Shown piece after piece: positions 10,930-27,747 of a stretch of DNA of 27,747 nucleotides (position 1 is the stretch's first letter; the number at the start of each line of letters is the position of its first letter). The notes under the pieces were generated by a model. It was not told where the DNA came from. It was given only the letters and a program-made list of their open reading frames with translations, and did no database searches. The DNA lies in IMG/VR virus record IMGVR_UViG_3300037751_000738, positions 1 to 27,747 of that record; one strand, 5' to 3'. A program made the position numbers and the translations under genes. Source of the stretch: a virus (Duplodnaviria; Caudoviricetes).

Positions 10930-10938
10930 GACTGCGGT

Positions 10939-11301
10939 TTAAATCATCTCTTCGGCGGGCGGGCCTTCGAAGGTCAGGGGCACCTTGCCGCCGTCGCTGG
11001 CGGTCATCGACGGGGTATTGGTCAGCCAGGCGCCCTGGACGACGTAGAGCTGGCCGGTGTCGCACTCGAAGGAAATGGTGACGTTGTCCCAGTCGCGCAT
11101 GGAGGCGAGGCGGGTCTCCTTGCCGACGGAGATTTCGCATTCGACGGCGCTCGGTTTGGGGGTGGAGAAATACCCCTGAACCGAGTTGGCCCCAACGACG
11201 GTGGTGCGCTCGTCGCCGCCGATGTCGAGTTTGGCCCCGGGCAGGGTTTCGAGGATCTGCCCGTCGGCCTTGATGATCGCTTTGCCAAGTTTCTTGGCCA
11301 T
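10939..11301 (-). CDS. Tail tube protein, Mu gpM family
   Basis: 120 aa after the sheath; AKLDIGGDERTTVVG, TISFECDTG; GGAGG RBS. Confidence 0.87.
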   Translation of the reverse strand: MAKKLGKAIIKADGQILETLPGAKLDIGGDERTTVVGANSVQGYFSTPKPSAVECEISVGKETRLASMRDWDNVTISFECDTGQLYVVQGAWLTNTPSMTASDGGKVPLTFEGPPAEEMI

Positions 11302-11329
11302 GATTAAACCTCCATAAAAGGGGCGTTAC

Positions 11330-12799: not shown

Positions 12800-12802
12800 G
12801 GT

Positions 12803-12982
12803 TTACTTGCCTCCCTTGGTTTTGGGCGCGGACGCCAGGACGACGTCGCCTTCTTTAAGGCGTCGCGTCCAGTAGGGGGTGAGAGTGACGACCTTCCCTT
12901 CGGGTGGAAGCACCTGACCTTTGTTGGCGGCGTCGCGGATCGTCAGGCCGGGCGCGGGTTTGAGAAACAATTCTTTTTGCAT
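12803..12982 (-). CDS. Mu gp38-like small protein (DUF2635)
   Basis: MQKELFLKPAPGLTIRD...LPPEG...YWTRRLKEGDV; AAGGAG RBS. Confidence 0.85.
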   Translation of the reverse strand: MQKELFLKPAPGLTIRDAANKGQVLPPEGKVVTLTPYWTRRLKEGDVVLASAPKTKGGK

Positions 12983-13007
12983 GGGTCGGATCTCCTTTGG
13001 CTGCTGT

Positions 13008-13553
13008 TTATTGCGGCAGAGCGATGTTGTCGGTGGCGTCGGCAACGCCGTCAGTCGGGGCCAGATCGTAATCGACGTGGGCGGTGAGGAAGTCGTCGAG
13101 GGTGGCGAGGTCGACGGCGCCGAGGGTCACTTCGTGGCGCCAGGTGAGGGCCCAGAGGGCAATGCCGTTGCGGTCGATCTCGCGGGAAAAGAGGTTGTCG
13201 GCCCGGACGGATCGGGCGCCGTCGACGGAGGCCAGATCCCAGTCCTCGGCGGCGATCAGCACCGCCAGCGAGCCGACCAGGGCGAGGGCGACGGCGTCGC
13301 GGGCCTGGCCGCCGGGGAGATCGCCTGCGACGACATAGGCGGCCCAGGTGGTGACGGCCTCGACTCCGGCGGAGACGGGGCGGATCTCGGAGATGCCGAG
13401 GCAGGCGACACGCACCGAGGGGGATCGGGCGGCCAGGGCCTTGAGCTCGGCCAGCGAAAAACGGCCGCCGTGCGGTTTGACTTCCTTGACGGACGCCCCG
13501 AGGGCGGCGCCGATCTGCGTGGTGATCGCCGTGCGCAGCGTGGTCAGGATCAT
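13008..13553 (-). CDS. Mu gp37-like tail completion/terminator protein (DUF1834-like)
   Basis: HGGRFSLAEL, ADNLFS, GIALWALTW, LDDFLT; position before gp38 and the sheath. Confidence 0.75.
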   Translation of the reverse strand: MILTTLRTAITTQIGAALGASVKEVKPHGGRFSLAELKALAARSPSVRVACLGISEIRPVSAGVEAVTTWAAYVVAGDLPGGQARDAVALALVGSLAVLIAAEDWDLASVDGARSVRADNLFSREIDRNGIALWALTWRHEVTLGAVDLATLDDFLTAHVDYDLAPTDGVADATDNIALPQ

Positions 13554-13993
13554 CGCAGCACCTCGGCGAGAAAGTCGTCCACCACCTGCTCGAGCTCGTC
13601 CTCGTCGTCGGTTGAGAGTCCGAGATAGGGGCGGGCGGGGATGTTGCGGCGTTCGTCTCCGGCCTGGTGGGTGGCGGCATAGACGAGGTTGCTGCCGATC
13701 TCGACGGCGCCGCCGGAGGAAGCGACTGTGTAGTCGATGGAGTCGAGGAGGTCGCGCTCCCCTTCGAGGAGGCTGTGGTTGCCGTGGCGGCTTAGGGCGT
13801 AGCGCTCGGACCAGTTCGGCCAGGCGACGCCGTCGGGGCCGGTCTTCTCGTCGTAGATACGGCGGCGGGTCTGGTTCTCTACGGCGAAGCCGACGGCATC
13901 GAGGAGCGCCCGGCGGTCAAGGGCGGCGATCTCGTCTATGCGTTTTTCGAGGCGCCCGATGGCGCGCAGGTCGAACTGCAGGGCGACGCTCAT
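13550..13993 (-). CDS. Virion morphogenesis protein (Mu gpG / P2 S family)
   Basis: Start MSVALQ overlaps the gp36 stop; GPDGVAW, GSNLVYAATHQAG, IPARPYLGLS. Confidence 0.88.
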   Translation of the reverse strand: MSVALQFDLRAIGRLEKRIDEIAALDRRALLDAVGFAVENQTRRRIYDEKTGPDGVAWPNWSERYALSRHGNHSLLEGERDLLDSIDYTVASSGGAVEIGSNLVYAATHQAGDERRNIPARPYLGLSTDDEDELEQVVDDFLAEVLR

Positions 13994-14409
13994 CGCAGAC
14001 CCTTCAGGGTGTCGCGGGTAAAGAGGCGCTCGCCGCCAGAGAAGCTGGCGCCGCTGCCCCCCTGGGGAGCGGAGGGGTCGGAGGCGAAGAGCTGGATCTT
14101 CCCTTCGGCGACCTTGATCAAAAAGGCGATGGCATCCTTGTAGCGGGTGCGTTTTTCTTCGGTGACGAGGCTGCCGACGCTCCCCTTGTAGAGGGCGATG
14201 TCGACGGCCATGAAGGTGAGGATCTTGGGGGTGACGGCCAGGGGGAGGGTGTAGCGCCCGGCGAGATAGCCGTCGATTTCCTCGGAGGCATCGGAGAGCG
14301 CCTTGTCGGCGACGCCGACGTCGGCGGTGCCGCTGCCGTCGCGGTCGAAGGCGAGGAGGAACTCGTCCGAGCTGTAGCGGTCGATGATGTCCTGGCTGAT
14401 GGCGTACAT
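13990..14409 (-). CDS. Head-tail connector, Mu gp36 (DUF1320)
   Basis: MYA start; ALSDASEEIDGYLAGRYTLPL, DIALY, RYKDAIAFL..VAEGK. Confidence 0.9.
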   Translation of the reverse strand: MYAISQDIIDRYSSDEFLLAFDRDGSGTADVGVADKALSDASEEIDGYLAGRYTLPLAVTPKILTFMAVDIALYKGSVGSLVTEEKRTRYKDAIAFLIKVAEGKIQLFASDPSAPQGGSGASFSGGERLFTRDTLKGLR

Positions 14410-14453
14410 GGAACACCCCCGGTGCAAGTCAAAAAAGCCGGTGAACTCGGCGA

Positions 14454-14511
14454 GCAACGGGGCCAGAATACCGGAGGGCGCGGGGATTTGTCAGATGAAG
14501 CAGCTCACAAT
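14454..14511 (-). promoter_or_regulatory. Mor/C-type activator-dependent late promoter (copy 1), upstream of the neck/tail genes
   Basis: Imperfect dyad TGAGCTGCTTCA (14496-14507) centred near -43.5 relative to -10 TATTCT (14465-14470); same spacing as copy 2. Confidence 0.65.
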
Positions 14512-14549
14512 AAAAAAAGCCCTAACCGCATAAACGGCAAGGGCTTTTT
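14512..14549 (-). terminator. Intrinsic terminator, possibly bidirectional (copy 1)
   Basis: AAAAAGCCCTTGCCGT-TTAT-GCGGTTAGGGCTTTTTTT. Confidence 0.75.
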
Positions 14550-14595
14550 CTCTTTTATGAAATCCTTTACTCAATAGCAAAGGGGGGCGCGATTG

Positions 14596-14943
14596 TCAAT
14601 CCTTTTGCTCGCTGGCCGCCGCCTGCCCGAGCTCTTCGGAGCGACGGGTCAGGGCTTCGAGAACGGTCTTGCGCTCTTCGCCGTCGAAAAACGCCGCGAG
14701 CTCGCTGAGGTTTTTGACCGCCTCGATGAGCTTGATCGTCTCGGTGGCGTTGGGGCGTTTTGTTTTCGGCTCTTCGTCTTCGGCCTCGAGCACTTCGACC
14801 GTCAGGCGGGTCTCGGCTTCGAGCGCTTTGAGCTGCGCCCGGGTGAAGGTCTCCAGGGGGTAATCGGTGGGCGTTTTGCTGTGCGGCACCCCGGCGCGGC
14901 GAAAGCCTTCGACCCTGGAGGTGATGCGGACAATTTTACTCAT
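14596..14943 (-). CDS. HI1506-like protein (Mu gp35 position)
   Basis: VRITSRVEGFRRAGVPHS...FTRAQLKALEAETRLTVE; follows the capsid gene. Confidence 0.8.
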   Translation of the reverse strand: MSKIVRITSRVEGFRRAGVPHSKTPTDYPLETFTRAQLKALEAETRLTVEVLEAEDEEPKTKRPNATETIKLIEAVKNLSELAAFFDGEERKTVLEALTRRSEELGQAAASEQKD

Positions 14944-14958
14944 GGTCTCTCCCGTGTC

Positions 14959-14990
14959 AAAAGTTCCCCCCGCCGGTCAGGGCGGGGGGA
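14959..14990 (-). terminator. Hairpin / weak terminator after the major capsid gene
   Basis: TCCCCCCGCC-CTGACC-GGCGGGGGGA followed by ACTTTT. Confidence 0.55.
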
Positions 14991-14995
14991 GAGGT

Positions 14996-16057
14996 TTACG
15001 CGCCGAGGCCGGTGGAGCCGAAGGCGGTTTGCCAGAAGCCGTAACCGGCGGCGCCGCGGGCTTCAACGCCGAAGTTGAACTCGCCGCGCATGAAGACGCC
15101 GTCGGCGTTCATGTCGGTCTGAGAAACGAAGACCGGCGCCTTGCGCTCCTGGAAGATGAAGGGGCGCACCGGCTTGGTGGTGTCGAGGAGGAACCAGGCG
15201 GTGTCCGAGGTGAGGCGACCGTCGACCTCCAGTTCGGCGGTCCCCTTGTAGGGGTTGGGCTTGCCGTCCTCGAGCTTGTCGTTGGTCAGCAGCGCCCGGC
15301 CGACGTTTTCGAGGGCCGGGGGAACGAGCAGGACGTTGGGGACGATGTTGAGGGGGCGCCCCTCGCCGTCCTTGAACTTGCGCATGGCGGTACGCGCCGC
15401 GCCGTAGCTGGCGTCGGCCAGCGCCTGGGTGGCGATGGAGAGGGGGGCCACCCCGAGGTTGCTGACGCTGACCGGATCGCCGGTGGCCGGGTTGATGACC
15501 GGGTGGTCGGTGTCGAAGAAGAACTGGCCGTCGAAGCACTCGGTGGCAAAGGCGCCGTTGACCTTGTCGAGCACCATCTCGTCGGGCCACTGCTTGGCGC
15601 TGAAGCCGGCGTTCTGCGCCTGGGGCGCGTAGATCCCGAGGTTGTCGTCCTCGATGTGGTTGCGCTTGACGCCGACGGTGGCCTCGAAGTCCTCATTGAT
15701 CAGGACGTACTTGCCCGCCTTGATGTTGCGCACCTCTTTATCCCCGAGCCAGCGGCGCATTTTCGGGAAATTCTCGAGCCAGGCGTAATCGTTCTGGGTG
15801 CTGGTCGAGGGGACCTTCATGGCGATTTTTTCCCAGACGCCCGGGGCGGCCTCGAAAGCCTTGTTGAAGGTGGTCTTGAGGTTGATGAAAATGTTGGTGA
15901 GGGTTCCGGCGTTGATGAGGATCGCCATGGAGGCGCCGCCGCCGCCGAGGAGGGCGTGCCAGGTGAAGGGGGCGGCCTGCGCCGGATCGGCGAAGGCGAC
16001 GGCGGTGATCGCCAGGGCCAGCATCAGCAGGCCGAAGAACAGAAGGGACTTTTTCAT
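14996..16057 (-). CDS. Major capsid protein, Mu gpT family, with a 43-aa hydrophobic N-terminal extension
   Basis: YAWLENFP, NEDFEATVGVKRNHIEDDNLGIYAP, CFDGQFFFDTDHP, WFLLDTTKPVRPFIFQERK, AGYGFWQ; AAAGGAG upstream of 16057; alternative start 15928 lacks an SD. Confidence 0.93.
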   Translation of the reverse strand: MKKSLLFFGLLMLALAITAVAFADPAQAAPFTWHALLGGGGASMAILINAGTLTNIFINLKTTFNKAFEAAPGVWEKIAMKVPSTSTQNDYAWLENFPKMRRWLGDKEVRNIKAGKYVLINEDFEATVGVKRNHIEDDNLGIYAPQAQNAGFSAKQWPDEMVLDKVNGAFATECFDGQFFFDTDHPVINPATGDPVSVSNLGVAPLSIATQALADASYGAARTAMRKFKDGEGRPLNIVPNVLLVPPALENVGRALLTNDKLEDGKPNPYKGTAELEVDGRLTSDTAWFLLDTTKPVRPFIFQERKAPVFVSQTDMNADGVFMRGEFNFGVEARGAAGYGFWQTAFGSTGLGA

Positions 16058-16093
16058 GACGGGTTATGCTCCTTTAAAAGGGGTTGAAATACC

Positions 16094-16504
16094 TCAGCCG
16101 ATAAAGACCAGAACGCCGTCGCTGGCGACGTCGAGCACGATCCCGGCGACCGACTGGGTGTTGCCTCCGGCGTTGGTGCCGCTGACGGTCTCGTCGTCGG
16201 TGATGTAACAGACCTTGCCGAGGCTGGCCTGGGTGACGGCGTCGCCGGCGGCGTTCTTGAAGCGGAAGGCTTCTCCGCGCCGGACGTTGATGCTCTTGGC
16301 GCCGTCGGCACCGCTGGTGTTGTCGACGGCCTCTTCGGCGCGGCCGAGGGCGGTGAGGGTGGTGGCGGTGCTGCCGGGGGCGGCGTAGCCGGTGGCGTTG
16401 GCGACGACCAGGGCGCCGGCATAGATCACCGCGGCGGCGGCGACGGGGACGACGATGAGCTTGCCGTCTTTTCTCGGGGTGTTGCGGTCAGCGATCAGGG
16501 CCAT
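16094..16504 (-). CDS. Probable capsid decoration/cement protein
   Basis: 136 aa between protease and capsid; ADRNTP, IYAGALV, VDNTSGADG, CYITDDETV; AGGAGG RBS. Confidence 0.65.
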   Translation of the reverse strand: MALIADRNTPRKDGKLIVVPVAAAAVIYAGALVVANATGYAAPGSTATTLTALGRAEEAVDNTSGADGAKSINVRRGEAFRFKNAAGDAVTQASLGKVCYITDDETVSGTNAGGNTQSVAGIVLDVASDGVLVFIG

Positions 16505-16540
16505 GGGGTGTTACCTCCTAACAGGGGTGGGGGCGGGGCT

Positions 16541-17035
16541 TCAGGCCGCGCCGTATTTTTTCAGGTCGTCGGCGCTGTTGCCGAACATCTCGGCAATTTT
16601 CTTCTCTTCGGCGTTGAGGGCGGTCTCTCCTGCGGCGGGGCTCTTGCCGTCGAGGTCGGAGCCCTTGCCGACGACGGGGGCCGCTTCGACGAATTTCCTG
16701 AAGGCGTCGAGCCCGCCGTCCTGGCGGCACATGCCGACATAGTAGTCCTTGGTGCCCGGCGTGACCTTGCCGGCGACGACGGCGGCGTCGACGGTGGCGT
16801 TGATCGCCAGTTCGAGATCGGCCTTTTTCACTTCGGCCAGGGCCGTCTCGGAGGTGGCGGCGCGGTTGAGGGCGGCGTCGTAGTCGGCCCGGGGGACGAA
16901 CCGGTCGAGGCTCGGGGTGTCGGCGCGGTTGAGGGCGGTGGAGAGATCGCCCTGCAGTTGGACGATGGCGTTGAGGGCGGTTGCCTCGTCGGCGGTCTCG
17001 GGGAGTCCGAGTTTAGCCAGCAGTTTCTTGAGCAT
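16541..17035 (-). CDS. Scaffolding protein (Mu gpZ-like) from an in-frame internal start in the protease gene
   Basis: GAGGAGG-8nt-ATG before MLKKLLAKLGLP (residue 189), at the protease/coiled-coil boundary as in Mu I/Z. Confidence 0.7.
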   Translation of the reverse strand: MLKKLLAKLGLPETADEATALNAIVQLQGDLSTALNRADTPSLDRFVPRADYDAALNRAATSETALAEVKKADLELAINATVDAAVVAGKVTPGTKDYYVGMCRQDGGLDAFRKFVEAAPVVGKGSDLDGKSPAAGETALNAEEKKIAEMFGNSADDLKKYGAA

Positions 17036-17599
17036 GGGTGGGGCCTCCTCTACTTGGGGTTGTTGGCGATTCAGAGCCGCCAGTTTGAAGTTGGGTTTAT
17101 TGACCAGGCCGACGGACGCGATATTCAGAATGCGGTTGCTGCTTTTTTCGAAGATCAGCGCCGGGGAGAGATAACGGTATTCCCTGTTTTCTACGGAGGC
17201 GCGGCCCCGGGGCGTCCAGTCGAACCGGCCCCAGATCGCCCCTTCGCGCAACTGCAGTTCCTTGATCCACCCGGCCGCCGGCGCCGGTTCGCCCTGGGGC
17301 GCCTTGAGGTGCGTGGCATGCTCCCAGTCGAGCGGGATGTCGGCGGCGTCCTGGGCGAAGAAATTAAGGATCCCCTCGGGCCGGTCGTTGATCCAGGAGC
17401 GGCCGTCGCGGCCGGTGACTCTGTCTCCGGAAGGAATCAGGGGGAGCCACTCGGGGACGCTGCCGTCGCCCGGCATCTCAAAATTAAGGGCGACAAGCTC
17501 GCACCCCTCGGGGAGGGTGGAGGCGTTGAGCGCGAGAAGAATGTCCCGGTCAAATGTGCCGCCGCCGATCAGGGCGATGCGGGCTTTGCGTTTTGGCAT
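16541..17599 (-). CDS. Prohead protease / scaffold, Mu gpI family
   Basis: GRDGRSW, PLDWEHAT, APAAGWI, WTPRG, EYRYLSP, GLVNKPN. Confidence 0.92.
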   Translation of the reverse strand: MPKRKARIALIGGGTFDRDILLALNASTLPEGCELVALNFEMPGDGSVPEWLPLIPSGDRVTGRDGRSWINDRPEGILNFFAQDAADIPLDWEHATHLKAPQGEPAPAAGWIKELQLREGAIWGRFDWTPRGRASVENREYRYLSPALIFEKSSNRILNIASVGLVNKPNFKLAALNRQQPQVEEAPPMLKKLLAKLGLPETADEATALNAIVQLQGDLSTALNRADTPSLDRFVPRADYDAALNRAATSETALAEVKKADLELAINATVDAAVVAGKVTPGTKDYYVGMCRQDGGLDAFRKFVEAAPVVGKGSDLDGKSPAAGETALNAEEKKIAEMFGNSADDLKKYGAA

Positions 17600-17713
17600 G
17601 GCGGACCTCTCTCAAAACCATCATTAAACCATCGTTAAATTCGCTCACAATCAACGCGCCCGACTTTTGCCGGGGTTGGTGCGGCCGAAGCGCTCGCGGG
17701 CCGTTTACGGCGA

Positions 17714-18532
17714 TTATTTGCCGGGGTTCTGGCTGCGGTATGTCTCCAGATCGCGGCGGGCCGTTTCGGCAACCTGCGGGTCGGCGGTTTTGAGCTTGCC
17801 GTCGAGCAGGCTTTGCAGGTTCTGCTGCCGGGTCTGCCCCGGGTTGGTGTCCCAGCCGGGGTCGATTCCCTCGGGGACGAGGGTCGTCTTGCCGGTGCGC
17901 TCGTTGACCCAGGTCTTGCGGCGCACCAGGGGGTTGCCGCTCTGCTCCCACCCCTTCTTGGCCATCTCGGCCCTGGAGATCGAGCGCACCCCGCATTTGC
18001 ATCCCCAGCCGTTGGGCGGCAGATGCGTGGACCACCAGGGGTGATCGACGGGGAGAATGGTGCCGTCCCACTGCTGGTGCAGCTCGCGATGCTGCTCGCT
18101 GGGGCCGAGGCCGTATTTTAGATAGGGGAACACGGCCTTGTTGCGCTGCGCCCGGTCCCACTGCCCGGCGGCGCGGGCGGTGCGCAGGTTGGCGTTGTAG
18201 ATGGTGCGCAGGCGGCGCGGGCTGCCGAGCTGTACGTCGAGCACTTCCCCAGTGGTTTTGTCGACCCACTCCTGTTTGCCCCACCAGCCGAGGCGCTGCA
18301 GCGTGGGGGTGAGATCCTTGCGGAAGTCGCGCAGGGTGCGCCCGTCGAGAATGGCCCGGTCGAGCTCAAGCCGGATCGCTTCGAGGACATCGAGCTGCAT
18401 CGCCTTGGCGACGGTAAAGGCGCTGGCATGCTCCTGGCGCCAGACGTCGCGCCAGTCGAAGGAGACCTTGAGCCCCTTGTTGGCAAAGAAGGCGAGGACG
18501 TCGGCGGGGACCGGGCCGGGGAAGCGGATCAC
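17714..18532 (-). CDS. Minor head protein, Mu gpF (gp30) family
   Basis: SFDWRDVW, AFTVAK, LQRLGWWG, RRLRTIYNAN, PPNGWGCKC, GIDPGWDTNPG. Confidence 0.92.
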   Translation of the reverse strand: MIRFPGPVPADVLAFFANKGLKVSFDWRDVWRQEHASAFTVAKAMQLDVLEAIRLELDRAILDGRTLRDFRKDLTPTLQRLGWWGKQEWVDKTTGEVLDVQLGSPRRLRTIYNANLRTARAAGQWDRAQRNKAVFPYLKYGLGPSEQHRELHQQWDGTILPVDHPWWSTHLPPNGWGCKCGVRSISRAEMAKKGWEQSGNPLVRRKTWVNERTGKTTLVPEGIDPGWDTNPGQTRQQNLQSLLDGKLKTADPQVAETARRDLETYRSQNPGK

Positions 18533-20115
18533 GGCGCGGCCTCCTGACTGTCGCCGAGGGCGCGGGCCTTGAGCATGGCCCCGGCGAGGGCGTCGATCAA
18601 CAGGGACGGGTCCTGGGTGTCAAGGAGTTCGGCGAGGCGCTCGCGCAGCTCGGCGAGGGTCTGCCCCTTGGCCAGGGCGTCGTCGATCAGCGCGGCAAGG
18701 GGATCGACGACCGGCGCCATGAGCAGCTGCCAGTCGGCGAGTTCTTCGGCGACCTGGTCGTCGATGGCATCGCTGGCCTCTTCGCCCTGACGGTTATGGG
18801 CGACCCCGCAGGAGGGGCAGCCGGCGGCGTGGTTCAGGGCCGCCGGGGACGGAGGAGCCGGGAGCATCGGAGCGCCGAGCAGGTCTTCGGGCTTGACGTT
18901 GGGTCCGGGATCGGGGAGGCCGAGCTTGTCGCGGACGACGCTGGCCTCGACCCGCAGGCCGAGGGGGACGAGCTTTTCGAGGGCGCTGGAGAGGGCGGCG
19001 ACGTCCTCGGGGACATCGGCGCGCAGCTGCAGCGAGGGGTAATTTTCCTGCGGGCCGTAGTTGAGATCGATGTAGGCCCGTACCAGGTCGCGGCCGAGGG
19101 TCTCTTCCATCTGCTCGGCGTCGTCGTCGCGAATGTCCCGCCGCACTTCGGCCTGGGCCTCCTCGTTGCCGAGCTTGCCCGGGGTCCCCTGGGTGGTGGC
19201 GGTCTGGCCGAGGATCCCCCGGGAGACCTGGGCGTCGAGGTAGTCAGCCAGAAGCTGAAAGAAATCGGCGGAGGCGCCCTTGCCGGCTTCGACGAGTTCG
19301 ATCTCCATGCTCTTGGGAAAAATGGCGGCGGCATCGATGCCGAGGTTGGCGACGGCCATGCGCAGGACGGCCTTGTCGCCTTCGCTGGCGGTGGAGTCGT
19401 ACTTGCCGAGGCGCAGCGGCATGCCGAAGACCTCGGCGAAGGCCAGCCAGTCCTTGATCGCGTACCCCTTGCACATGTAGGCCCAGGCGGCCAGCCGGGC
19501 GAGCCCGCCGCGGATGGGGAGGCCGGTCTTGATGCGGGGGACGTGCACGATGAAGTTGAAGGGTTCGAGGGGGATCCCCTCGATCATGTCGGCCTCGTCG
19601 CGCAGGCGGATCTCGCTGCGGCTGACCTGGTCGAAGCAGAAAAAGCGGGGATCGCGCCAGGTGTAGCCCCGGGGGATCCAGCGCGCGCCGGTGCGGTCCC
19701 AGCGGATTTCACAGACGCTGTACCCTTTGCCGAGGGCGTCGAGCAGATCCTTGATCAGGGCGCGGAAGCCGGGCTTGCGCACGAGGTCGCGCACGGCATC
19801 GGCCAGCTCGACGTCGCGGGCGCTGTCGCTGTAGGCCTCGACGGAAATCGGCAGGCGCGAGACGGCGAGCTTGCGCTTGCTGAGCTCGCAGGAATAATGC
19901 AGGTCGCGCTCTTCCATCTCTTCGGAGAGTGTCAGCTGGGCGTTGTGGTCGCCGTCGGCGGCCTGCTGCAGGATGGAGGCGAGGCGCACGGGGGTGAGGC
20001 CGCCGGCGACGGTTTCGTTCCAGAGGGTGCGGACACCTGTGAGGGACGGCGCGGCATGCTCGCGGACGAGCTGCTGGGTGCGAACGGGGCGACCGTAGGC
20101 GTCGACGAGTGCCAT
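18529..20115 (-). CDS. Portal protein, Mu gp29 (DUF935)
   Basis: EEMEERDLH, LLDALGKGYSVCEI, FAEVFGMPLRLGKY, ILGQT. Confidence 0.93.
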   Translation of the reverse strand: MALVDAYGRPVRTQQLVREHAAPSLTGVRTLWNETVAGGLTPVRLASILQQAADGDHNAQLTLSEEMEERDLHYSCELSKRKLAVSRLPISVEAYSDSARDVELADAVRDLVRKPGFRALIKDLLDALGKGYSVCEIRWDRTGARWIPRGYTWRDPRFFCFDQVSRSEIRLRDEADMIEGIPLEPFNFIVHVPRIKTGLPIRGGLARLAAWAYMCKGYAIKDWLAFAEVFGMPLRLGKYDSTASEGDKAVLRMAVANLGIDAAAIFPKSMEIELVEAGKGASADFFQLLADYLDAQVSRGILGQTATTQGTPGKLGNEEAQAEVRRDIRDDDAEQMEETLGRDLVRAYIDLNYGPQENYPSLQLRADVPEDVAALSSALEKLVPLGLRVEASVVRDKLGLPDPGPNVKPEDLLGAPMLPAPPSPAALNHAAGCPSCGVAHNRQGEEASDAIDDQVAEELADWQLLMAPVVDPLAALIDDALAKGQTLAELRERLAELLDTQDPSLLIDALAGAMLKARALGDSQEAAP

Positions 20116-21557
20116 TACCAGAGTCCTTTCGAGGCGCCGAAACCGGCGGTGACTTTAACGGGGCGGTCGTTGCGGCCGTCGGCCGTGCGGCCGACGCCTT
20201 CGTAGGCGTATTCGGCGACCTCTCCGGAGGCGGCATGGATGGCCAGGGCCAACGCCCAGAAGCGGTCGGCGTGGCCGTTTTCGCTGCGCTCGGCGGTGAA
20301 GCGAATGTTACCGGCCGCCGTGGTTTCCTTGGTGACGGCCCGCAGATCGGCGCGGATCTCGGGCTTGTAGGGGATCCGCAGCTGCTTGTCTTCCATGCGG
20401 CCGCGCACCGGATACGCCAGCGTTTCCTTGACACGCGGGGTGAAGGTGACGCATTCGACGCGGTACTCGCCGAACTTGCGCACCGCGTCGTCGCCCCAGC
20501 CGATGCCGAGGCCGGTGTAGTCAAGGCAGGTGCGCCCCATGTTGGCCATGATCGGCCAGAGAATCTTTTCCTGGTCGGGCTTGGTCATGTTCTTGAGCTC
20601 GACGATCTGCCGGGTGTAGAGGGTGTCGCCGAGGCGCTCGAGCACCCAGAGGACGGTGAGGTCCTTCTTGCGGCCGATGTCGAGCCCGGCGAAAAAGCGG
20701 CCGGAGTTTTTCACCTGGCTGGCGTCGATCTCCCAGTTGTCGCCGGGGCCGTACTCGCAGCCGGCGATGAGATCGTATTCGAGGAACGCCGAGGCATCGT
20801 CGGCGGGCTCGCACATATACTCCTGCTGAAACGATTCCTGATCGGCGCAGCCGCTCTTGATAAAGTCGTAATATTCGGGCTCGGTCATCCCCTTGACTTC
20901 GTGCTCGCCGGGGAGGCTCTGCTGCAGCTTATAGAGAAAGCCCTGGTCGAGGGCGTCCTGCAGCGTGACGCGGTGCAGGCTGATTCCCTTGGGGTTCTTG
21001 TGCTCGCGCACCTCGCGGATCAGGGCGTTAAAAAAGTTGCCGCTGCCGCGATGGGTGGAGATGACTTCCATGTTGCCGCCCCAGGTGATGCCGGGGTAGG
21101 CGATGCTCCAGAGCTTGCGCGGGTCGGGGTGCAGCGCGAACTCGTCGAGGATACGCCCGCCGCGCTTGCCCGCCTGGGCGTCGGGATTGGAGCTCATGGA
21201 GTGGATGCGCCGCCCGTTGGCAAAGTGGAGCACGTAGGCGCTGATCTTGCGCTCGGCGTCGATGACGGTTTCGCCGAGATCCTCGGCGGCCAACTGCAAC
21301 AGCTTTGCGAACATCTTGCAATCTTCGATCACCAGGCGCGCCTGGAGATCGTCGCGGCTGGAGATCCACTGGTCGTGCTTGGCCCCGGCTTCGGCGGTGC
21401 GCTCGTCGGCGGCGTAGGCGGTGCTCCAGGAGAGGCCGATCTGCCGCGCTTTTTCCATCAGCTTCAGGCGCGACCGGTCCTTGATCCAGCGCTCCTGGTA
21501 GGGGAGGAAGAGGCCGTCCGGGTTGACCGGGCGTATGCGCGCGGCGCCGTTTTTCAT
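20115..21557 (-). CDS. Terminase large subunit, Mu gp28 family
   Basis: FLPYQ, Walker A KARQIGLSW, Walker B ILDEFA, GLDIGRKKD nuclease motif, HADRFWALALA. Confidence 0.95.
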   Translation of the reverse strand: MKNGAARIRPVNPDGLFLPYQERWIKDRSRLKLMEKARQIGLSWSTAYAADERTAEAGAKHDQWISSRDDLQARLVIEDCKMFAKLLQLAAEDLGETVIDAERKISAYVLHFANGRRIHSMSSNPDAQAGKRGGRILDEFALHPDPRKLWSIAYPGITWGGNMEVISTHRGSGNFFNALIREVREHKNPKGISLHRVTLQDALDQGFLYKLQQSLPGEHEVKGMTEPEYYDFIKSGCADQESFQQEYMCEPADDASAFLEYDLIAGCEYGPGDNWEIDASQVKNSGRFFAGLDIGRKKDLTVLWVLERLGDTLYTRQIVELKNMTKPDQEKILWPIMANMGRTCLDYTGLGIGWGDDAVRKFGEYRVECVTFTPRVKETLAYPVRGRMEDKQLRIPYKPEIRADLRAVTKETTAAGNIRFTAERSENGHADRFWALALAIHAASGEVAEYAYEGVGRTADGRNDRPVKVTAGFGASKGLW

Positions 21558-22153
21558 GCCGACATTCTCAGGACGTCGCGGCGGATCCGCGCGATGGTCT
21601 CGGGGCTGACGCCTTCTTCGCGGGCGGTCTCGCCGACGGCGGCGGCGGCGTCTTCAAGGGTGCGCTTGCGAATCTCGGTTTCGCGTTTAACGTTGATCGA
21701 CGCCCCCTGCTCCAGGCGCTGCACCGCCAAGGCCAGAGCCTTGACCTGGTCGATGGTGGCGGACATCTTCTCCGGGTCTTCCAGGTCGGCATCCTGGAGC
21801 TTCAACGAGAGGTCGAAAGCCATGGAGCGCAGCATCTCGTTGATCAGCAGTCCGACCTGTCCCTGGGGCGCGGCGCCGACTTTGGAGATAAAGATCTCGG
21901 CCACCTCACGGGACTGGCGCAGCTTGGCGCCGACCGACTCCATCTGCAGAGCGTAGCGGTTGACGGCGCTTTTGCTGAGACGCTCGGGAGCATCGTCGGG
22001 CGCGGTGCCGGTCTCGTGCATCGCGGCGAGGAGGGCGTTGATACGCTCCACCGCCTGCAGCTGAGTGACGCGGCGATCGTTGAGCAACTCCTGGAGCTGC
22101 TGCCGGATCGGATCGGGGAGCAGGTCGATGCTCGACTGCTGACGCTTGCCCAT
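21554..22153 (-). CDS. Terminase small subunit, Mu gp27 (DUF3486)
   Basis: MGKRQQSSIDLLP, LSKSAVNRY, GVSPETIARIR; overlaps the terL start. Confidence 0.88.
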   Translation of the reverse strand: MGKRQQSSIDLLPDPIRQQLQELLNDRRVTQLQAVERINALLAAMHETGTAPDDAPERLSKSAVNRYALQMESVGAKLRQSREVAEIFISKVGAAPQGQVGLLINEMLRSMAFDLSLKLQDADLEDPEKMSATIDQVKALALAVQRLEQGASINVKRETEIRKRTLEDAAAAVGETAREEGVSPETIARIRRDVLRMSA

Positions 22154-22257
22154 CAGATGTTCCCCCACATTTCGGCGATCCCTTCGGCGAGACGATCACA
22201 AAACCAGAGAGCCAGGTAGAGGACCGGGACGATCAGCAGTATGGCCAGCGGCAGCAT
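22153..22257 (-). CDS. Small 34-aa single-pass membrane protein (not in the ORF track)
   Basis: Manual translation MLPLAILLIVPVLYLALWFCDRLAEGIAEMWGNI*; GAGGT upstream; TGATG overlap with terS; fills the intergenic gap. Confidence 0.55.
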   Translation of the reverse strand: MLPLAILLIVPVLYLALWFCDRLAEGIAEMWGNI

Positions 22258-22261
22258 GAAA

Positions 22262-22561
22262 TTACCTCGGCCCGGGGCGTTTGACCCCGTCGACGCGCGC
22301 CGCCCCGCTGGCCACGTCGGCCCCGCGGGAGGTGAGCCGGACGATCAGCACGGAGGTGACCGCCTCGACCGTGACCAGTCCCTGCTCTTCGAGCCAGCGC
22401 ACCTCGGTCTTGACCTTGTCGCGGCTGACCGTATGCCCGAACCCTGACAGGGCTTCGCGCAGAATCGAATCGTTGGTCGAATAGCCGGGATCCTCGCTGA
22501 GGAGTCGCAGCACGACCAGGCGCAGATCGGAGGTTTTCAGGTCGGCGTAGTGGTGGCTCAT
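22262..22561 (-). CDS. Mu gp26-like winged-helix protein
   Basis: RLVVLRLL, N.SIL, VSRDKV...WLEEQGLV, LTSRGADVASG, GVKRP. Confidence 0.85.
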   Translation of the reverse strand: MSHHYADLKTSDLRLVVLRLLSEDPGYSTNDSILREALSGFGHTVSRDKVKTEVRWLEEQGLVTVEAVTSVLIVRLTSRGADVASGAARVDGVKRPGPR

Positions 22562-22974
22562 CGTTTGGCTCCCTGGTTGATCAAAAATTCGTTGATCAGA
22601 TCGGCGACTCTATTCAAGCCCTCCAGTCGCCCCTCGAGGCGACCGATCTGCTGGGTCAATCCGGTAATGTCGTGGCTCAGAGCCGCCATCTCCTGACGGC
22701 TCGGCATGTTGCGCACCTCGGTGCCGAGACGGTTGAGGGCCATCTCCAGCTCGCCGGTCTTTTTCTTGTGCTCGGCGCAGGAGTTGTCGCGCTTGTCTTC
22801 CCCCACCTGGTGGACGGACTTGGACATCCGCGTGGCCACCTGGTCTTCCAGCGCCTTGAACCGTTTGGCGTTGACCTTTGCCCGGTTGCTCCACCAGACG
22901 TAGACGCCGACCGCGACGGTCCCGACCAGTTGCAGCGCGTCAAACCAGAACCGCCAGGCGGTGTAATCGATCAT
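22558..22974 (-). CDS. Mu gp25-like protein (DUF2730-like; N-terminal TM plus coiled coil)
   Basis: Hydrophobic N-terminal segment, MPSRQE, LEGRLEG...LINEFL; position before gp26. Confidence 0.75.
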   Translation of the reverse strand: MIDYTAWRFWFDALQLVGTVAVGVYVWWSNRAKVNAKRFKALEDQVATRMSKSVHQVGEDKRDNSCAEHKKKTGELEMALNRLGTEVRNMPSRQEMAALSHDITGLTQQIGRLEGRLEGLNRVADLINEFLINQGAKR

Positions 22975-23195
22975 CCTTTGGAACCCCTCTTCATGGCTTG
23001 CTCATGCTCGGTTTGGCATTCGATACACCGGGTGCAGCCGGGGGAGGCGAGCCGGCGTTTCTCGGGGATCGCCCCTTCGCATTCCTGACAGTTGGCCAGA
23101 CTCTCGGCTGAGACCCTGCGGCGGAGGTGCGCCTCGAGGATGTCGCGTTGGAGCTGATCGTTGATCTCCTGGGCGCGGTCGAGATCGTCGGGCAT
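22971..23195 (-). CDS. TraR/DksA-type C4 zinc-finger protein
   Basis: MPDDLDRAQE...CQECEGAIPEKRRLASPGCTRCIECQ. Confidence 0.88.
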   Translation of the reverse strand: MPDDLDRAQEINDQLQRDILEAHLRRRVSAESLANCQECEGAIPEKRRLASPGCTRCIECQTEHEQAMKRGSKG

Positions 23196-23392
23196 CAGCT
23201 GGCGGTTTCCGGGTCGGCCGTGCTCAAAAACTTCAGGTCGGGCCAGCTGGCGCCCTTGCTCTTTTCGAGGGCGGCGACCAGGTCTTCGCGCGTGAGGTCG
23301 GCGGTGTTGATCTCGATCAGGCGGCCCCCGAGGTCGATGATCAGTCTCGATGCGACGGGCGCCAGGGCGATGACGATTTCGGCGGTGGTCAT
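23195..23392 (-). CDS. Hypothetical 65-aa protein in the lysis cluster
   Basis: MTTAEIVIALAPV...; ATGA and TGATG overlaps with both neighbours. Confidence 0.65.
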   Translation of the reverse strand: MTTAEIVIALAPVASRLIIDLGGRLIEINTADLTREDLVAALEKSKGASWPDLKFLSTADPETAS

Positions 23393-23997
23393 TGGATGGG
23401 CTCCGGGGTAAGGCCGAAGGCGCTGGCGACAGCGCGGAAGTCGGCGGCAAAAGTGGCGAAGCGATCGGCGGCGGCGCGAAAATTGGCCCAGGCGGGAGAG
23501 CCGGATCCTTCCTCGCCGGAGACGATGGCGACAACAAGGAGATCGGCGGCGGTGTCGTAGGCGGCGGCGGCCTTGTCGTAGAGGTCGGAAGCCAGATCGC
23601 ATCGCACCTGCGTCAGAGTGCCGGCGGTGCAGAGATCGTCGGCGGCGGAGGCGAGGCTGACGACGGTGGCCTGGGTGGAGAGCAGCGCCCGGGCGGAGAC
23701 GGTGGCGTGGCTCTCTTTTTTGAGGGCGCAGCCGGAGAAAATGAGTGGCGTCAGCATGAGGGCCAGCAGCGTGGCGACCAGGGCGACGGGGAGGGCGTTG
23801 ACGCGGACGTAGCCGCCCTGGCTCTTCCAGACGACGGGCTCTTTGGTGACCAGGCGCAGGAGGATGTTGACGACGCCGAGGATCGCCATCTGGGCGTCGA
23901 GGTCGATGACGAACCCGGTCTGGCCCTGCACCACCATGGCGATCACGGCGATGACGTTGAGCCAGAGGGTTTTACTGAGGAGCGGCGATTTACCCAT
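23389..23997 (-). CDS. Membrane protein: holin-like N-terminus fused to a lipoprotein-like (spanin?) domain
   Basis: GGAGG RBS before MGKSPLLSKTLWLN; two hydrophobic segments; third hydrophobic segment ends in lipobox-like FSGC (Cys90). Confidence 0.65.
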   Translation of the reverse strand: MGKSPLLSKTLWLNVIAVIAMVVQGQTGFVIDLDAQMAILGVVNILLRLVTKEPVVWKSQGGYVRVNALPVALVATLLALMLTPLIFSGCALKKESHATVSARALLSTQATVVSLASAADDLCTAGTLTQVRCDLASDLYDKAAAAYDTAADLLVVAIVSGEEGSGSPAWANFRAAADRFATFAADFRAVASAFGLTPEPIQ

Positions 23998-24057
23998 TCG
24001 TGCCTCCATGGTTGGCCCGGATCTGGTCGATACGGGCGTGGGATTTTTCCCAGCAGG

Positions 24058-24603
24058 TCATGCCGCGAGCCTTTCGAGCCACCCGGGAATATAGAGCGGG
24101 TTGAGGCAGGCATAATAGTTGTAGGCCTCGCCCTTGAGGGCCATGAGCAGCGCCCGCTTGTAGGGACAGTCCCGCAGGACGGCGAGGGTAATCGGCCCGA
24201 TTGCGCCGTCGACCCGCAGAACCTCGCCGTCGAGCAGCCGGGCGATAGCCTGCCGCCAGGGGGCGCGGCGATGCTGGGGGACCGTGCCGGTGCAGACGAT
24301 ATTGATAGCCCGCTGGAGCATCTTGCCGGCGGCGACGGGGCCGCAGTTGACCCCCAAATCGAAGAGGCGCGCGGCGATGTCCGGGGAAACCTGGGCGACC
24401 TGGTCAAATCCGGGGCGCTGCCAGTAGCGGGCGCGATAGATTTCTCTGGCGGCCACCAGGGTGAGATGGGCGATATCGACATCCGGGTTGGCGCGCTTGC
24501 TGATCCCGTACTTCGTTTCCCCGCCCGGGTCGGCGGGATCGTCGACGTAGCCGCCTTCGAACTGGAGGGTGTGGGTCAGGGCTTGTTCGAAGATACCGGC
24601 CAT
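24058..24603 (-). CDS. Endolysin, glycoside hydrolase family 108
   Basis: EGGYVDDPADPGGETKYGIS catalytic motif; FDLGVNCG, VDGAIGPITL, GWLER. Confidence 0.92.
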   Translation of the reverse strand: MAGIFEQALTHTLQFEGGYVDDPADPGGETKYGISKRANPDVDIAHLTLVAAREIYRARYWQRPGFDQVAQVSPDIAARLFDLGVNCGPVAAGKMLQRAINIVCTGTVPQHRRAPWRQAIARLLDGEVLRVDGAIGPITLAVLRDCPYKRALLMALKGEAYNYYACLNPLYIPGWLERLAA

Positions 24604-24802: not shown

Positions 24803-25168
24803 TCAAGGATCGTCTCCGGCGGCGAAGTCGAAGCCGGGCTGACGGCGCTGGAATTCGTCTTCGCGCACCTTGGCGACGATGCCGTAGATCTGGCGCTCAG
24901 TGAGGGCGTAGGCCTTGGCGAGCGCATAGGTATTGGCGCCGGTGTATTTGCCGTAGATCTCGCGGTCGCGCTTGTCGATCAGCATCCGGATCCCCTTGGG
25001 CATGTAGAGCTGTTCGCCGCCGTAGCGGCTGCGCACGGTCTCGGCGGCGATCAATCCGATCTCGCGGGCGCGGGGGAGGGAAATCTCTGCGTCGATCAGG
25101 GAGGTGGCGACGACCTCGGCGATGTCGCGCAGCATCTGGACGCCCCGGTGGTCGGTGTCGTTGGCCAT
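24803..25168 (-). CDS. mor: Mor/C-family transcription activator
   Basis: YGGEQLYMPKG, RDREIY, LAKAYALTERQIYGIV HTH; immediately upstream of the lysis genes. Confidence 0.88.
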   Translation of the reverse strand: MANDTDHRGVQMLRDIAEVVATSLIDAEISLPRAREIGLIAAETVRSRYGGEQLYMPKGIRMLIDKRDREIYGKYTGANTYALAKAYALTERQIYGIVAKVREDEFQRRQPGFDFAAGDDP

Positions 25169-26047
25169 TTAGCTTCTCCCTTCGTTGAGTTTGCGGGACT
25201 GCTCCTGCAGTTGCTGGCGGCGGTCTTCTTCGTTGACGGTTGCACCGCCGGGGATGCCCATGCCGTTGCCGATCACCGCGGCCATGTCGGCAAAAAACCT
25301 CTTGCCCTCGGCGACCTGGTTGGCGCTGGGCGGCGGGGCATCGAGCTTTTCGCGGCGGATCCGCGCGGGCATCTGGGCAAACATGGCCTTGGGCTCGGGC
25401 CACTTTTGCGCGGTCTTCAGCAGCCCGCTAAACCCTTGTTTAACGCGCGTTGCATCGAGGGTTTCGGAGTTGCAACCGGTGGCCAGAACGTGGTGCCAGA
25501 CGTCGGCGGTGAGGGTGATGGTGTCGGCCCCGGGGGCGCCGTCATAACCTCCGGCCAGGAGCGCGGAGAGACCGTCGGCGATGAGGGCGCGCAGCCAGTC
25601 GGTCTGCCCCCAGTCGGCCAGCGCGGCAATCCCCTGGGCGCGCTTGCCTTTGGCGACAACCAGGGCGGGCGACGCATGCGTCGCCCCTACGTTGGCGGGG
25701 GCGGCGGGCAGGGTCGATTCGAGCACGCGCTTGAGATAGTTGTGATTGGAGAGCGGCTTGCTCTGCCCCTGGTCGCGCTTGGAGCGCAGGGCCTCGACGG
25801 TTTCGCCGAGGGCGACGGCCAGGGCGCGGGGATCGGCGCCGAGGTCGAGGACTTCGCGGGCCAGCCGGACGGCGCGGTCGAAGGAAAGCGCCCGGGCTTT
25901 GCTGCGGAACAAACCGAGATAGGCCAGCAGCGGCCGGGAGAGCGGCCCGGCCTGAGTGAAGACGGCGAGCAGTTCGCCGGCGGCGTCGCCTTCGAGGGCG
26001 GCATCGAGGGGGAACTTGGCGTGGCAGCAGGGGCAGGTCAAATTCAT
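25169..26047 (-). CDS. Conserved Mu-like phage protein of unknown function with N-terminal CPCC motif
   Basis: MNLTCPCCHA, YLGLFR, PLSNHNYLKRVL; ATG overlaps the intI stop; stop abuts the mor start. Confidence 0.75.
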   Translation of the reverse strand: MNLTCPCCHAKFPLDAALEGDAAGELLAVFTQAGPLSRPLLAYLGLFRSKARALSFDRAVRLAREVLDLGADPRALAVALGETVEALRSKRDQGQSKPLSNHNYLKRVLESTLPAAPANVGATHASPALVVAKGKRAQGIAALADWGQTDWLRALIADGLSALLAGGYDGAPGADTITLTADVWHHVLATGCNSETLDATRVKQGFSGLLKTAQKWPEPKAMFAQMPARIRREKLDAPPPSANQVAEGKRFFADMAAVIGNGMGIPGGATVNEEDRRQQLQEQSRKLNEGRS

Positions 26048-27021
26048 GTGGCGGCAATTCTCCGGGTATCAAGGGGGCTGGCGACGGTGACCCGGGCCAG
26101 CAGGTGAAGATAGACCATGGTGGTGCGCACGTCCTTGTGCCCCATCAGCTCTTGCAGCCGCTTGAGTGCGACTTCGTGGGAGCCCTCGGCGTTTTCGAGC
26201 CAGTGGGTGGCAAAGGAGTGGCGGAAGGTGTGACAGCCTGCGGGGCGCGGCACACGGGCGGCGCGGATGCCGCGGCGAATGCGCTTCTGGACGGCGGTGT
26301 CGTGGATGTGGTGGAGGCGGCCGCGCCACTTGGGATCACGGGCGGCGGCGCTGGCAGGGAAGAGCCAGAACCACGACCAGGACAAGGGGGCGTCGGGGTA
26401 TTTGCGCTCGAGCGCGCCGGGCAACGAGACAGCCACCCCGTTACCGGCGTGGCGTTCATAGTCGAGGCGGATCTTGCGGAGGTGCTTTTCGAGCGGCGGC
26501 ACCAGCATCTCGGGGAGCGGCAGCATCCGGTCCTTGTCGCCTTTTCCGGAGCGCACCATAAGGGTGCGACGCTCGACGGAAAGGTCTTTGACGCGCAACT
26601 GGCAGACTTCGAAGAGGCGCAAGCCGCAGCCGTACATCAGTGCGCCCCAGAGCCAGGCCTCGCCGTCGAGATGATCGAGCACCGCCCAGGCTTCCTCGCG
26701 GGAGAAGACTTCGGGGAGACGCTGCGGCCGGTTGGAGCGCAGAAAGGAGAGGTCTGCGACCTCGACCCGCAAGGTGTTTTTGTAGAGGAAGATGAGTGCG
26801 CAAAGCGCCTGCTTCTGCGTGCTGGCGGCAACCGACTCCCGGCTGGCCAGCATGGTGAGAAATTTGCCGATGCGCTGCTCGCGGGAATCGGTCGGCGAGC
26901 AGCGAGGCAGGAAGTCGATAAAACGCTCCACCCAGTAGAGGTACACCTTCGCCGTCTTCGGGCTGCGGCGCTTGAGTGTCAAAACGTCGCGCATCGCCTG
27001 CAAAGTCTGGGTTTTATTCAT
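26044..27021 (-). CDS. intI: Integron integrase (IntI-type tyrosine recombinase)
   Basis: VAASTQKQAL, YGCGLR, GKGDKDR, IntI-specific insert SLPGALERKYP...WSWFWLFP, HTFRHSFATH, GHKDVRTTMVY, C-terminal SPLD; AAAGGAGG RBS. Confidence 0.93.
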   Translation of the reverse strand: MNKTQTLQAMRDVLTLKRRSPKTAKVYLYWVERFIDFLPRCSPTDSREQRIGKFLTMLASRESVAASTQKQALCALIFLYKNTLRVEVADLSFLRSNRPQRLPEVFSREEAWAVLDHLDGEAWLWGALMYGCGLRLFEVCQLRVKDLSVERRTLMVRSGKGDKDRMLPLPEMLVPPLEKHLRKIRLDYERHAGNGVAVSLPGALERKYPDAPLSWSWFWLFPASAAARDPKWRGRLHHIHDTAVQKRIRRGIRAARVPRPAGCHTFRHSFATHWLENAEGSHEVALKRLQELMGHKDVRTTMVYLHLLARVTVASPLDTRRIAAT

Positions 27022-27045
27022 GGTGGTCCTCCTTTCCTGGGTGGA

Positions 27046-27087
27046 GTTAAACAGCCATTGTGGCGGGGTAAGCTATGTTATAGCTGC
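27046..27087 (+). other. Putative attI site; crossover G|TT at 27077/27078
   Basis: GTTATAGCTGC (27077-27087) matches the reverse complement of GCAGCCATAAC at the first attC R'' 10/11; additional GTTAAAC at 27046; directly upstream of intI. Confidence 0.65.
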
Positions 27088-27354
27088 TACTCTTCGCCGT
27101 TGCCCATGCAGTGAATTTCGTACCCGAACGCCTGACACAAAGCGTGTTTTCTGGCGATTGCCCGTGCATCACTTTCGGTGATATAGAGTGCCACCTCTCC
27201 ATTGCTATCAACCATCGGCATCACCATTTTTCCATCCTGCGAATAAATCATGACGAAGTGTTTTCCACATGCAGACATTTCTACCTCCTTGGCCGCAGCC
27301 ATAACCATCGGTTCAAGCGGACGGTGAACCCGTCCGCCGCTTACCCTCAAGCCG
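27078..27354 (+). mobile_element. Integron gene cassette 1
   Basis: Bounded by the attI GTT and the attC1 R' G|TT; holds a single ORF. Confidence 0.75.
27087..27278 (-). CDS. Cassette 1 hypothetical protein (63 aa)
   Basis: AAGGAGG-5nt-ATG (MSACGKHF...); stop adjoins the attI core; lower GC than the phage backbone. Confidence 0.7.
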   Translation of the reverse strand: MSACGKHFVMIYSQDGKMVMPMVDSNGEVALYITESDARAIARKHALCQAFGYEIHCMGNGEE

Positions 27355-27360
27355 TTATCT
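27299..27360 (+). other. attC site 1
   Basis: R'' CCATAAC, 5-nt spacer, L'' GTTCAAGC, central stem GGACGG/CCGTCC, L' GCTTACC, R' GTTATCT; architecture like the aadA-type attC. Confidence 0.85.
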
Positions 27361-27642
27361 GCTCACAGCTTCTTGAAAAGCGTCAGCCGCAGCATTCATT
27401 TCCTCATCCGTCCCGGTCTTTATCATGTCTGCAAATTTCGAGTGCCAGAATGAAGGCTGCCAGCATTTCATTTCCTTTTTAAACGGGAATGATTTTAGAT
27501 ATTGGTATTGTTCAAACCTGTCACAGCACGGCCAGGATACTACGAACTCGGGAAAGTTCCCGTCATCGTTCGAACCGATCAACTCGCAAGTCGAACAGTT
27601 CGCTTTTTCGATGCCAGTTTTTTCTTTAATTCCTTCGTGCAT
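27355..27642 (-). CDS. Cassette 2 hypothetical Cys-rich protein (95 aa)
   Basis: GGAGG-6nt-ATG (MHEGIKEK...); CSTC...CC...C; TAA lies within the attC1 R' core; low GC. Confidence 0.72.
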   Translation of the reverse strand: MHEGIKEKTGIEKANCSTCELIGSNDDGNFPEFVVSWPCCDRFEQYQYLKSFPFKKEMKCWQPSFWHSKFADMIKTGTDEEMNAAADAFQEAVSR

Positions 27643-27655
27643 ATTCAACCTCCGC

Positions 27656-27747
27656 AGATAACAAGGCGCTTCAAGGGACGCCTTCGGCGTCCGGGGTTCT
27701 CGATAAATTCGGTGATACTCAAGGGCCGGTGCGGCGCCCCTGAGCTT
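27656..27747 (+). other. attC site 2 (R' lies just beyond the window)
   Basis: R'' AGATAAC, spacer AAGGC, then GCTTCAAGGGACGCC pairs with GGCGCCCCTGAGC leaving two unpaired bases and one mismatch. Confidence 0.75.

Follow-up and report, generated by a model that had tools for sequence, protein, structure and literature searches.

A probable integron lineage resident in phages, with mirror-image cassettes transcribed from phage operons

The window, by which we mean the whole stretch of DNA analysed here (27,747 bp), is the entire viral record IMGVR_UViG_3300037751_000738. PHROGs matches identify genes for tail, head, packaging and lysis, together with one for a Mor/C-like activator, all on the minus strand, and we take the phage to be Mu-like from its gene order and from the Mu-type head, tail and Mor/C activator genes among these matches. 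An integron module occupies the high-numbered end of the contig.

1975..24603, minus strand: endolysin, packaging, head and contractile-tail genes in Mu-like order (PHROGs)
24803..25168, minus strand: Mor/C-like late transcriptional activator (phrog_532, E 5e-26), directly after the phage gene 25169..26047
25169..26047, minus strand: phage gene coupled to the intI stop (phrog_2161; 4-nt overlap with intI)
26044..27021, minus strand: intI, integron integrase, 325 aa (TIGR02249, 311 bits against a cut-off of 265)
27027..27033, minus strand: Shine-Dalgarno (SD) sequence of intI, AGGAGGA, read from the sequence, 44 nt from the attI core
27046..27083, plus strand: attI, core GTT at 27077-27079, with an upstream TTA..GCCA..TGG..TAA motif common to the clade
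27078..27354, plus strand: cassette 1, 277 bp including attC1; core/inverse core match 10/11 nt; GC 0.52
27087..27278, minus strand: cassette 1 gene (ORF1), 63 aa; SD AAGGAGG at 27284-27290, 5 nt before the ATG
27299..27360, plus strand as top strand: attC1, predicted crossover between 27354 and 27355
27299-27305, plus strand: attC1 R'' CCATAAC, then a 5-nt spacer
27311-27318, plus strand: attC1 L'' GTTCAAGC, extra C at 27314, second unpaired A at 27321
27339-27345, plus strand: attC1 L' GCTTACC, then an 8-nt spacer
27354-27360, plus strand: attC1 R' GTTATCT
27355..27747, plus strand: cassette 2, cut by the contig end a few bases before R'; core/inverse core match 9/9; GC 0.48
27355..27642, minus strand: cassette 2 gene (ORF2), 95 aa with four invariant Cys; SD GGAGG at 27649-27653, 6 nt before the ATG
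27656..27747, plus strand as top strand: attC2, partial; R'' 27656-27662, L'' 27668-27675, L' 27739-27745, R' beyond the contig end

The contig stops within attC2 and so does not reach the distal end of the array. The GC content of the backbone is 0.67, against the values listed for the two cassettes. Another low-GC stretch (0.47-0.51) lies at 168-1952, after the collagen-like tail fibre genes, where a 594-aa minus-strand gene encodes a product with weak tail or spike matches only.

Tyrosine recombinases share the catalytic set R-K-H-R-H-Y, and R135, K160, H264, R267, H295 and Y304 of the window IntI are invariant among 19 aligned IntI. The protein aligns over its full length with VchIntIA (PDB 2A3V; E 1.6e-59), whose contacts with the extrahelical bases are given in the available text of PMC3053210 as P232, H240, H241, K209, Y210, W219, W157 and Q145. 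In the alignment, their counterparts are P230, H237, H238, K207, Y208 and W217, and the remaining two positions are occupied by R157 and K145, the same as in IntI1. A clade-specific insertion of five residues follows the ATHW motif. The intI stop and the phage gene that comes next share 4 nt (ATGA), and the intact intI lies 55 nt from the attI core; a CALIN label for the array was ruled out by this intact intI adjoining attI. The attI motif with its GTT core is kept in 40 loci (20 aligned). Upstream of the core, the attI of the clade contains an imperfect inverted repeat (TTA..GCCA / TGGC..TAA; 27046-27072 in the window). Judged from its sequence, the window carries a true integron platform, with IntI, attI and attC sites of canonical asymmetry bounding cassettes.

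The strand of the attC sites is central to what follows. The sequence-only reading had placed the attC anatomy (R'', a 5-nt spacer, L'' with an extra base, L' and R') on the plus strand, in the canonical orientation relative to intI, and both points held when the sequence was reread: the extra base at position 4 of the attC1 L'' and the second unpaired A seven bases on indicate plus as the top strand, opposite to intI on minus, and the site adjoining intI is the conserved attI rather than an attC, which points the same way. A strand classifier for which 77 canonical attC sites served as the training set (75/77 correct when one locus at a time was left out) scored attC1 at +14.8 with plus as top and -11.5 with minus as top, and gave the left arm of attC2 a score of 11.5 as top strand. 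A profile of 24 canonical sites matched attC1 on plus with an E value of 4.3e-5, the best of five matches in the window. Neither the classifier nor the profile assigned the top strand to minus, the outcome that had been named as refuting the reading. Since the free-energy minimum for attC1 is an alternative hairpin and not the recombinogenic fold, the strand was called from pairing register, classifier and junctions.

The junctions come from public contigs of four sediment or soil runs, which, among the matches listed (the best 32 of 285 pieces), contain the window cassettes with 0-2 differences beside other neighbors; three of the runs share year and habitat and may belong to one campaign, and one may be the source sample of the window. 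Among these matches, contigs of cassette 1 start exactly at 27077 and switch neighbor at 27354-27357; one covers 27077-27357 and then diverges, another has 126 foreign bases before 27077, and a further one has 119 foreign bases before 27354. Such swapping of neighbors implies that attC1 travels with cassette 1 and that the switch occurs at the plus-strand GTT. The predicted attC top strand in the window is plus.

Both cassette genes had been described as lying on the minus strand behind strong SD sequences (AAGGAGG and GGAGG) and as stopping at or beside the GTT core, which coordinates and homologs bear out: the ORF1 stop is 8-10 nt from the attI core, and the TAA of ORF2 overlaps the R' core of attC1. 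Neither of the two frames continues through the crossover. Neither window gene has the Pc-type layout, in which genes lie on the top strand upstream of their own attC. ORF1 has three homologs (78-83% identity, all 63 aa) and ORF2 has 29 outside its own cluster (49-77% identity); for the products of both, no match was found in Pfam, PHROGs or NCBIfam, and Atlas matches stayed below 0.9. Conservation of a plus-strand frame, which would have spoken against the reading, did not appear, since the 78-aa ORF at 27425-27661 has no family match and the longest open frame antisense to ORF2 homologs varies from 47 to 96 codons in no constant state (7 DNA homologs, 5 distinct). In 7/12 viral loci examined, relatives of ORF2 are ordinary operon genes without flanking attC; thus phage genes became cassettes, or the reverse.

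By searching viral, genome and metagenome contigs and 201 host-class genomes, we identified 47 distinct IntI in which a loop is 14 residues long, against nine in others. In a quick tree of 82 rows, from which five truncated proteins were left out, a branch with SH-aLRT 99 has the 42 included clade IntI on one side, and 33 host IntI lie apart from them. Clade loci were picked for their IntI similarity and their motif, and loci that are related do not count as independent. Many matches from the motif scans were non-clade recombinases and fragments (18/31 genome matches) and were discarded. L051, from a Bacteroidetes bin (33% identity, long branch), is in the tree and outside the cassette counts, and showed no phage hallmark among the three genes scanned. 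L043, L044 and L067 have no attI call, and L038, L115 and L136 have too little upstream DNA. The named genome records of the clade are mostly Geobacteraceae, Desulfobulbales-type and 'Deltaproteobacteria' bins, from which we infer a host of the window phage in this range. Among the 14 genome loci scanned, 13 place the clade IntI inside prophage-like DNA, with terminase, portal or capsid genes in ten and phage-type primases in three. The module occurs after Mu A/B genes (L006), before terminase (L004 and L062) or between terminase and portal (L011 and L050), co-directional with its neighbors in these differing phage types. No clade member was detected among 50,697 GenBank phage records, in which nine IntI matches were all below 40%. 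In the Mu-like early region of L006, a 5-nt unit is repeated in tandem about 12 times (5660-5730).

Two phage arrangements outside the clade were also observed. The Mu-like prophage L219 (G126:C32:3000-14000) encodes an IntI with a 9-residue loop on a long branch, together with an inverted array at about 5850-8700, possibly of independent origin. A second phage IntI group (SH-aLRT 99) has canonical cassettes downstream of a co-oriented intI (L020 11000-14700, L017 11000-14000 and L143 5700-10100), another way to align cassettes with phage transcription; the record of L143 (Virus Rctr41k, KX853513) labels its IntI only as xerD.

Most integron cassette ORFs lie on the attC top strand and are driven by Pc near attI. 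Arrays were walked from attI without using ORFs, which were fitted afterwards; the walker is heuristic and some cassettes are mis-bounded. Among 72 clade cassettes walked, 66 were kept and six dropped (longer than 1500 bp or core match below 8). The genes lie on the bottom strand in 56/66 and on the top strand in one, which lacks an SD, with no call in nine, and the core TAA serves as stop in 32 cassettes. The same code applied to host chromosomal arrays (49 cassettes, 16 loci) returned 31 top, 4 bottom (all in L207) and 14 no call, and for the integrons of Shewanella M16-3 and Vibrio p16 phages 13 top, 0 bottom and 6 no call of 19 cassettes. Both comparisons that had been proposed, attC strand against ORF strand along arrays and clade against host chromosomal integrons, support the reading (56/66 inverted in the clade vs 4/49 in hosts). 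The sites themselves look ordinary: the classifier agrees for 51/59 clade attC, with 8/59 scoring weakly the other way, the bottom strand folds lower in 35/41 sites, and top strands show negative GC skew in 32/41. Negative top-strand GC skew and lower bottom-strand folding have been reported for mobile integrons in the available text of PMC5027507. In the first cassettes of L004, L007 and L114, the gene starts inside a long attC loop, 78-92 nt before R'', the mirror image of canonical genes whose ends lie within attC.

An accidental host integron fragment in a phage, with genes that are rare inverted host cassettes, is a highly improbable source of this pattern. Captures have been described for Vibrio and Shewanella phages in the accessible text of PMC9892861, IntI is present in 107/201 host-class genomes, a number of phage attC are close in sequence to one family of host attC, and the host array L207 has up to four bottom-strand calls. 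However, the clade IntI stand apart from host IntI, the captured controls are canonical (13 to 0), phage genes lie on both flanks, relatives of the cassette 2 gene are ordinary phage genes, and no clade cassette protein matched the 63 host integron loci (partial arrays). Host arrays also yielded observations of their own. About 3760 nt upstream of intI in L207 (G125), a clearly inverted cassette (54 aa, SD) sits inside a canonical host array; its attC type is like that of phage L003/L114, and it may be a captured phage-type cassette. A host integron group (L209 5176-5236; L222 5134-5194) has short attC with an 8-nt L'-R' spacer, much like phage-clade attC (L014 334-385), together with canonical genes and intI frames that stay open far upstream (about 450-500 codons).

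Differences between related arrays appear to be footprints of an active system. Apart from one 703-bp unit, the phage contigs L013 and L014 match at 100% identity over 5,478 and 337 bp. The unit starts at GTTA, carries an inverted methyltransferase gene and ends with its own attC; as the one precise gain or loss seen, it is situated some 2.1 kb from attI (at 2135-2151 nt upstream of intI), implying that arrays also change distally. The unit stands behind a short GTTA-N-GTTA site, not a full attC, which would be a secondary or remnant site. L076 and L091 have IntI (97.6%), attI and distal gene in common, and their arrays differ. L142 contains the same 708-bp cassette twice, and exact duplicates within one array were observed at L142 7857-8468 and its copy and at L016 7373-8384. 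Clade arrays are short, with 1-6 mapped cassettes, and vary from one close relative to the next; few cassettes are common to different arrays.

These units bear on another reading, in which the strand was miscalled, or IntI acts on the opposite strand, and the cassettes would be canonical with intI inverted. Inverted-integrase integrons do exist (PMC4889954, available text), the clade IntI carry the five-residue insertion, and the eight dissenting sites noted above score the other way; yet attC1 moves with cassette 1, neighbors change at the plus-strand GTT, the 703-bp unit is bounded by GTTA at its start and by its own attC at its end, attI rather than attC adjoins intI, and the residues contacting extrahelical bases are kept, leaving such an error scarcely credible.

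By its family matches, the identified cargo is phage-type. Pfam matches were obtained for 13/73 cassette proteins (eight DNA methyltransferases, a PAPS reductase domain, Lar restriction alleviation, YopX, crAss001_48 and DUF7694), and PHROGs adds five methyltransferases, bringing these to 13/73 cassette proteins in total. The suggestion that the cassettes form a phage-adapted class gains support from the orientation contrast with hosts, from the phage-DNA setting of the clade and from this cargo.

With regard to transcription, a same-strand gene follows intI in 36/43 loci (within 10 nt in 21), and a same-strand ORF ends near the last mapped core in 27/33, with its TAA in the core in 14. Of these 27 distal ORFs, at least 7 are probably cassettes missed in the mapping, given their inverse core or weak attC; the distal genes of L006, L044, L056, L076/L091 and L219 have no inverse core and look resident, that of L219 being a Mor/C-like activator whose stop codon is the last core. 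The distance from attI core to intI start is 44-101 nt (median 60), and the layout as a whole offers promoters little space. Upstream genes that frequently stop in the last core and an intI that frequently overlaps the next gene make read-through expression likely, and the proposal that cassettes are expressed by phage transcription arriving from the distal end is supported by this predicted gene layout. Mu A/B genes are seen in the analogous loci L006 and L219; since the distal array end is missing from the window contig, which ends within the array, we infer from these relatives a similar driving operon for the window.

Alternatively, cassettes might be self-expressing, with their own promoter in the attC or leader and orientation secondary. 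A few cassettes with their own promoters are reported in the available text of PMC4889954, and the clade attC lies 5' of its gene and travels with it; genes start a median of 28 nt inside R'', the median leader is 80 nt, and four cassettes have leaders of 124-158 nt (more than 120 nt beyond R''), roomy enough for promoters. A sigma-70-like site was found in 0/59 cassette leaders vs 1.2 in shuffles, in a weak scan that gave no excess in host controls either. A consensus scan, likewise with no excess in host controls, detected no Pc promoter into the array in the window, and Pc-like sites occur in 10/40 clade loci vs 5.8 in shuffles (host controls 8/34 vs 7.6 expected); because host controls show no excess, the promoter scan has no power. 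The attC sequences are also diverse, like host attC lying 3' of genes, and self-expression leaves the 56-to-1 polarity and the coupling of intI to flanking genes unexplained, which makes it an unlikely account.

It is also conceivable that inversion was selected mainly for recombination rate: with genes running the way of phage replication, the lagging-strand template would hold the recombinogenic bottom strand, which folds and recombines more there, expression being a by-product. A bottom strand on the lagging template raises excision, as reported in the available text of PMC5371416, which would fit arrays that are short and variable between close relatives; moreover, L020 and L143 reach co-orientation with canonical cassettes by an upstream intI, so co-expression alone does not force inversion. 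This effect is nevertheless compatible with phage-operon read-through and not exclusive of it, and as the main cause we consider it rather improbable.

Taken together, the data most probably reflect an integron lineage resident in phages, whose mirror-image cassettes are transcribed from phage operons. With cassette genes on the attC bottom strand, one phage transcript would run from upstream phage genes through array, attI and intI and replace Pc, and the inversion probably serves to let this transcript express the cassettes; a single message would thus hold phage gene, attC, cassette gene, attI, intI and phage gene. By sequence comparison, the recombination side is canonical, with IntI residues kept, normal attC asymmetry and swaps at the R' GTT. 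The expression side is mirrored, each attC serving as the 5' leader of its own gene, followed by an SD about 28 nt inside R'', and the stop often being the TAA of the next core. Because cassette insertion takes place at attI (PMC5371416, available text), a new cassette would become the last among cassettes on the message, before intI and further phage genes. Production of IntI would follow the activity of the phage operon, so shuffling may proceed alongside phage growth. Its cargo comes from the accessory genes of phages, and DNA methyltransferases, probably acting against host restriction, are frequent among them.

A broader scenario is tentative, and we hold it to be possible but somewhat short of an even chance: phages of Geobacter-type bacteria may have an integron economy of their own, in which a phage-only IntI lineage, attached to any phage operon, reshuffles a stock of mirror-image cassettes made from phage genes (methyltransferases and other counter-defence genes). 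Such cassettes would be silent in host integrons, expressed by phage transcripts only and most recombinogenic in replication, as an answer to host integrons with defence cassettes, and host-like attC sites would allow exchange between the two pools.

According to the available text of PMC5027507, strand selectivity aligns promoterless cassette genes with Pc; in the clade, an unchanged recombination polarity would serve oppositely written genes across a whole phage-borne lineage, making phages owners, not just carriers, of integrons. The clade would offer a natural test of cassette making, in which ordinary phage genes gained attC at the 5' end, and it suggests that phages infecting sediment bacteria have a modular set of counter-defence genes. 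Software built on gene-then-attC order would mis-assign its cassettes.

Neither inverted genes as a rule nor a phage-resident IntI clade was found in the searched, mainly non-subscription literature, within the text available (PMC9892861, PMC5027507, PMC5371416, PMC3053210, PMC4889954, PMC8876359, PMC11551772 and PMC8352920). The phage integrons and CALINs of Qi et al. 2023 (PMC9892861) are likewise in phage genomes with methyltransferase cargo; unlike the clade, their complete integrons are host or class 1 fragments as far as the available text goes, and those re-analysed here (Shewanella M16-3 and Vibrio p16) are the canonical controls described above. The available main text of that paper describes neither such a clade nor inverted genes, and its annotation file may bear on strand. 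In inverted-integrase integrons (Treponema group), as presented in the accessible text of PMC4889954, intI and cassette genes are co-directional as in our clade, but intI is oriented as attC, whereas the clade keeps intI and attC canonical and flips gene relative to attC. The window has intI on minus and the attC top strand on plus, and the phage loci L020 and L143 follow the inverted-integrase pattern.

Compared with canonical integrons (class 1; VchIntIA; Geobacter class), the clade has the same IntI family, attI at the intI 5' end, the same attC R''-L''-L'-R' with two unpaired bases, crossover at the R' GTT, and the same top strand opposite to intI with a more stable bottom strand. It differs in having genes on the bottom strand with attC 5' of the gene and co-directional with intI, so placed that they are beyond the reach of any Pc within or close to intI, and in the coupling of intI to phage genes, the five-residue insertion, short arrays and phage-type cargo. 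Mu-like phages carry a semi-essential accessory region with small variable accessory genes in a one-direction operon. The setting of the clade resembles this region, as in L006 and L219, whose arrays come after the Mu A/B genes; in contrast to it, the variable genes of the clade are att-bounded units with a dedicated recombinase.
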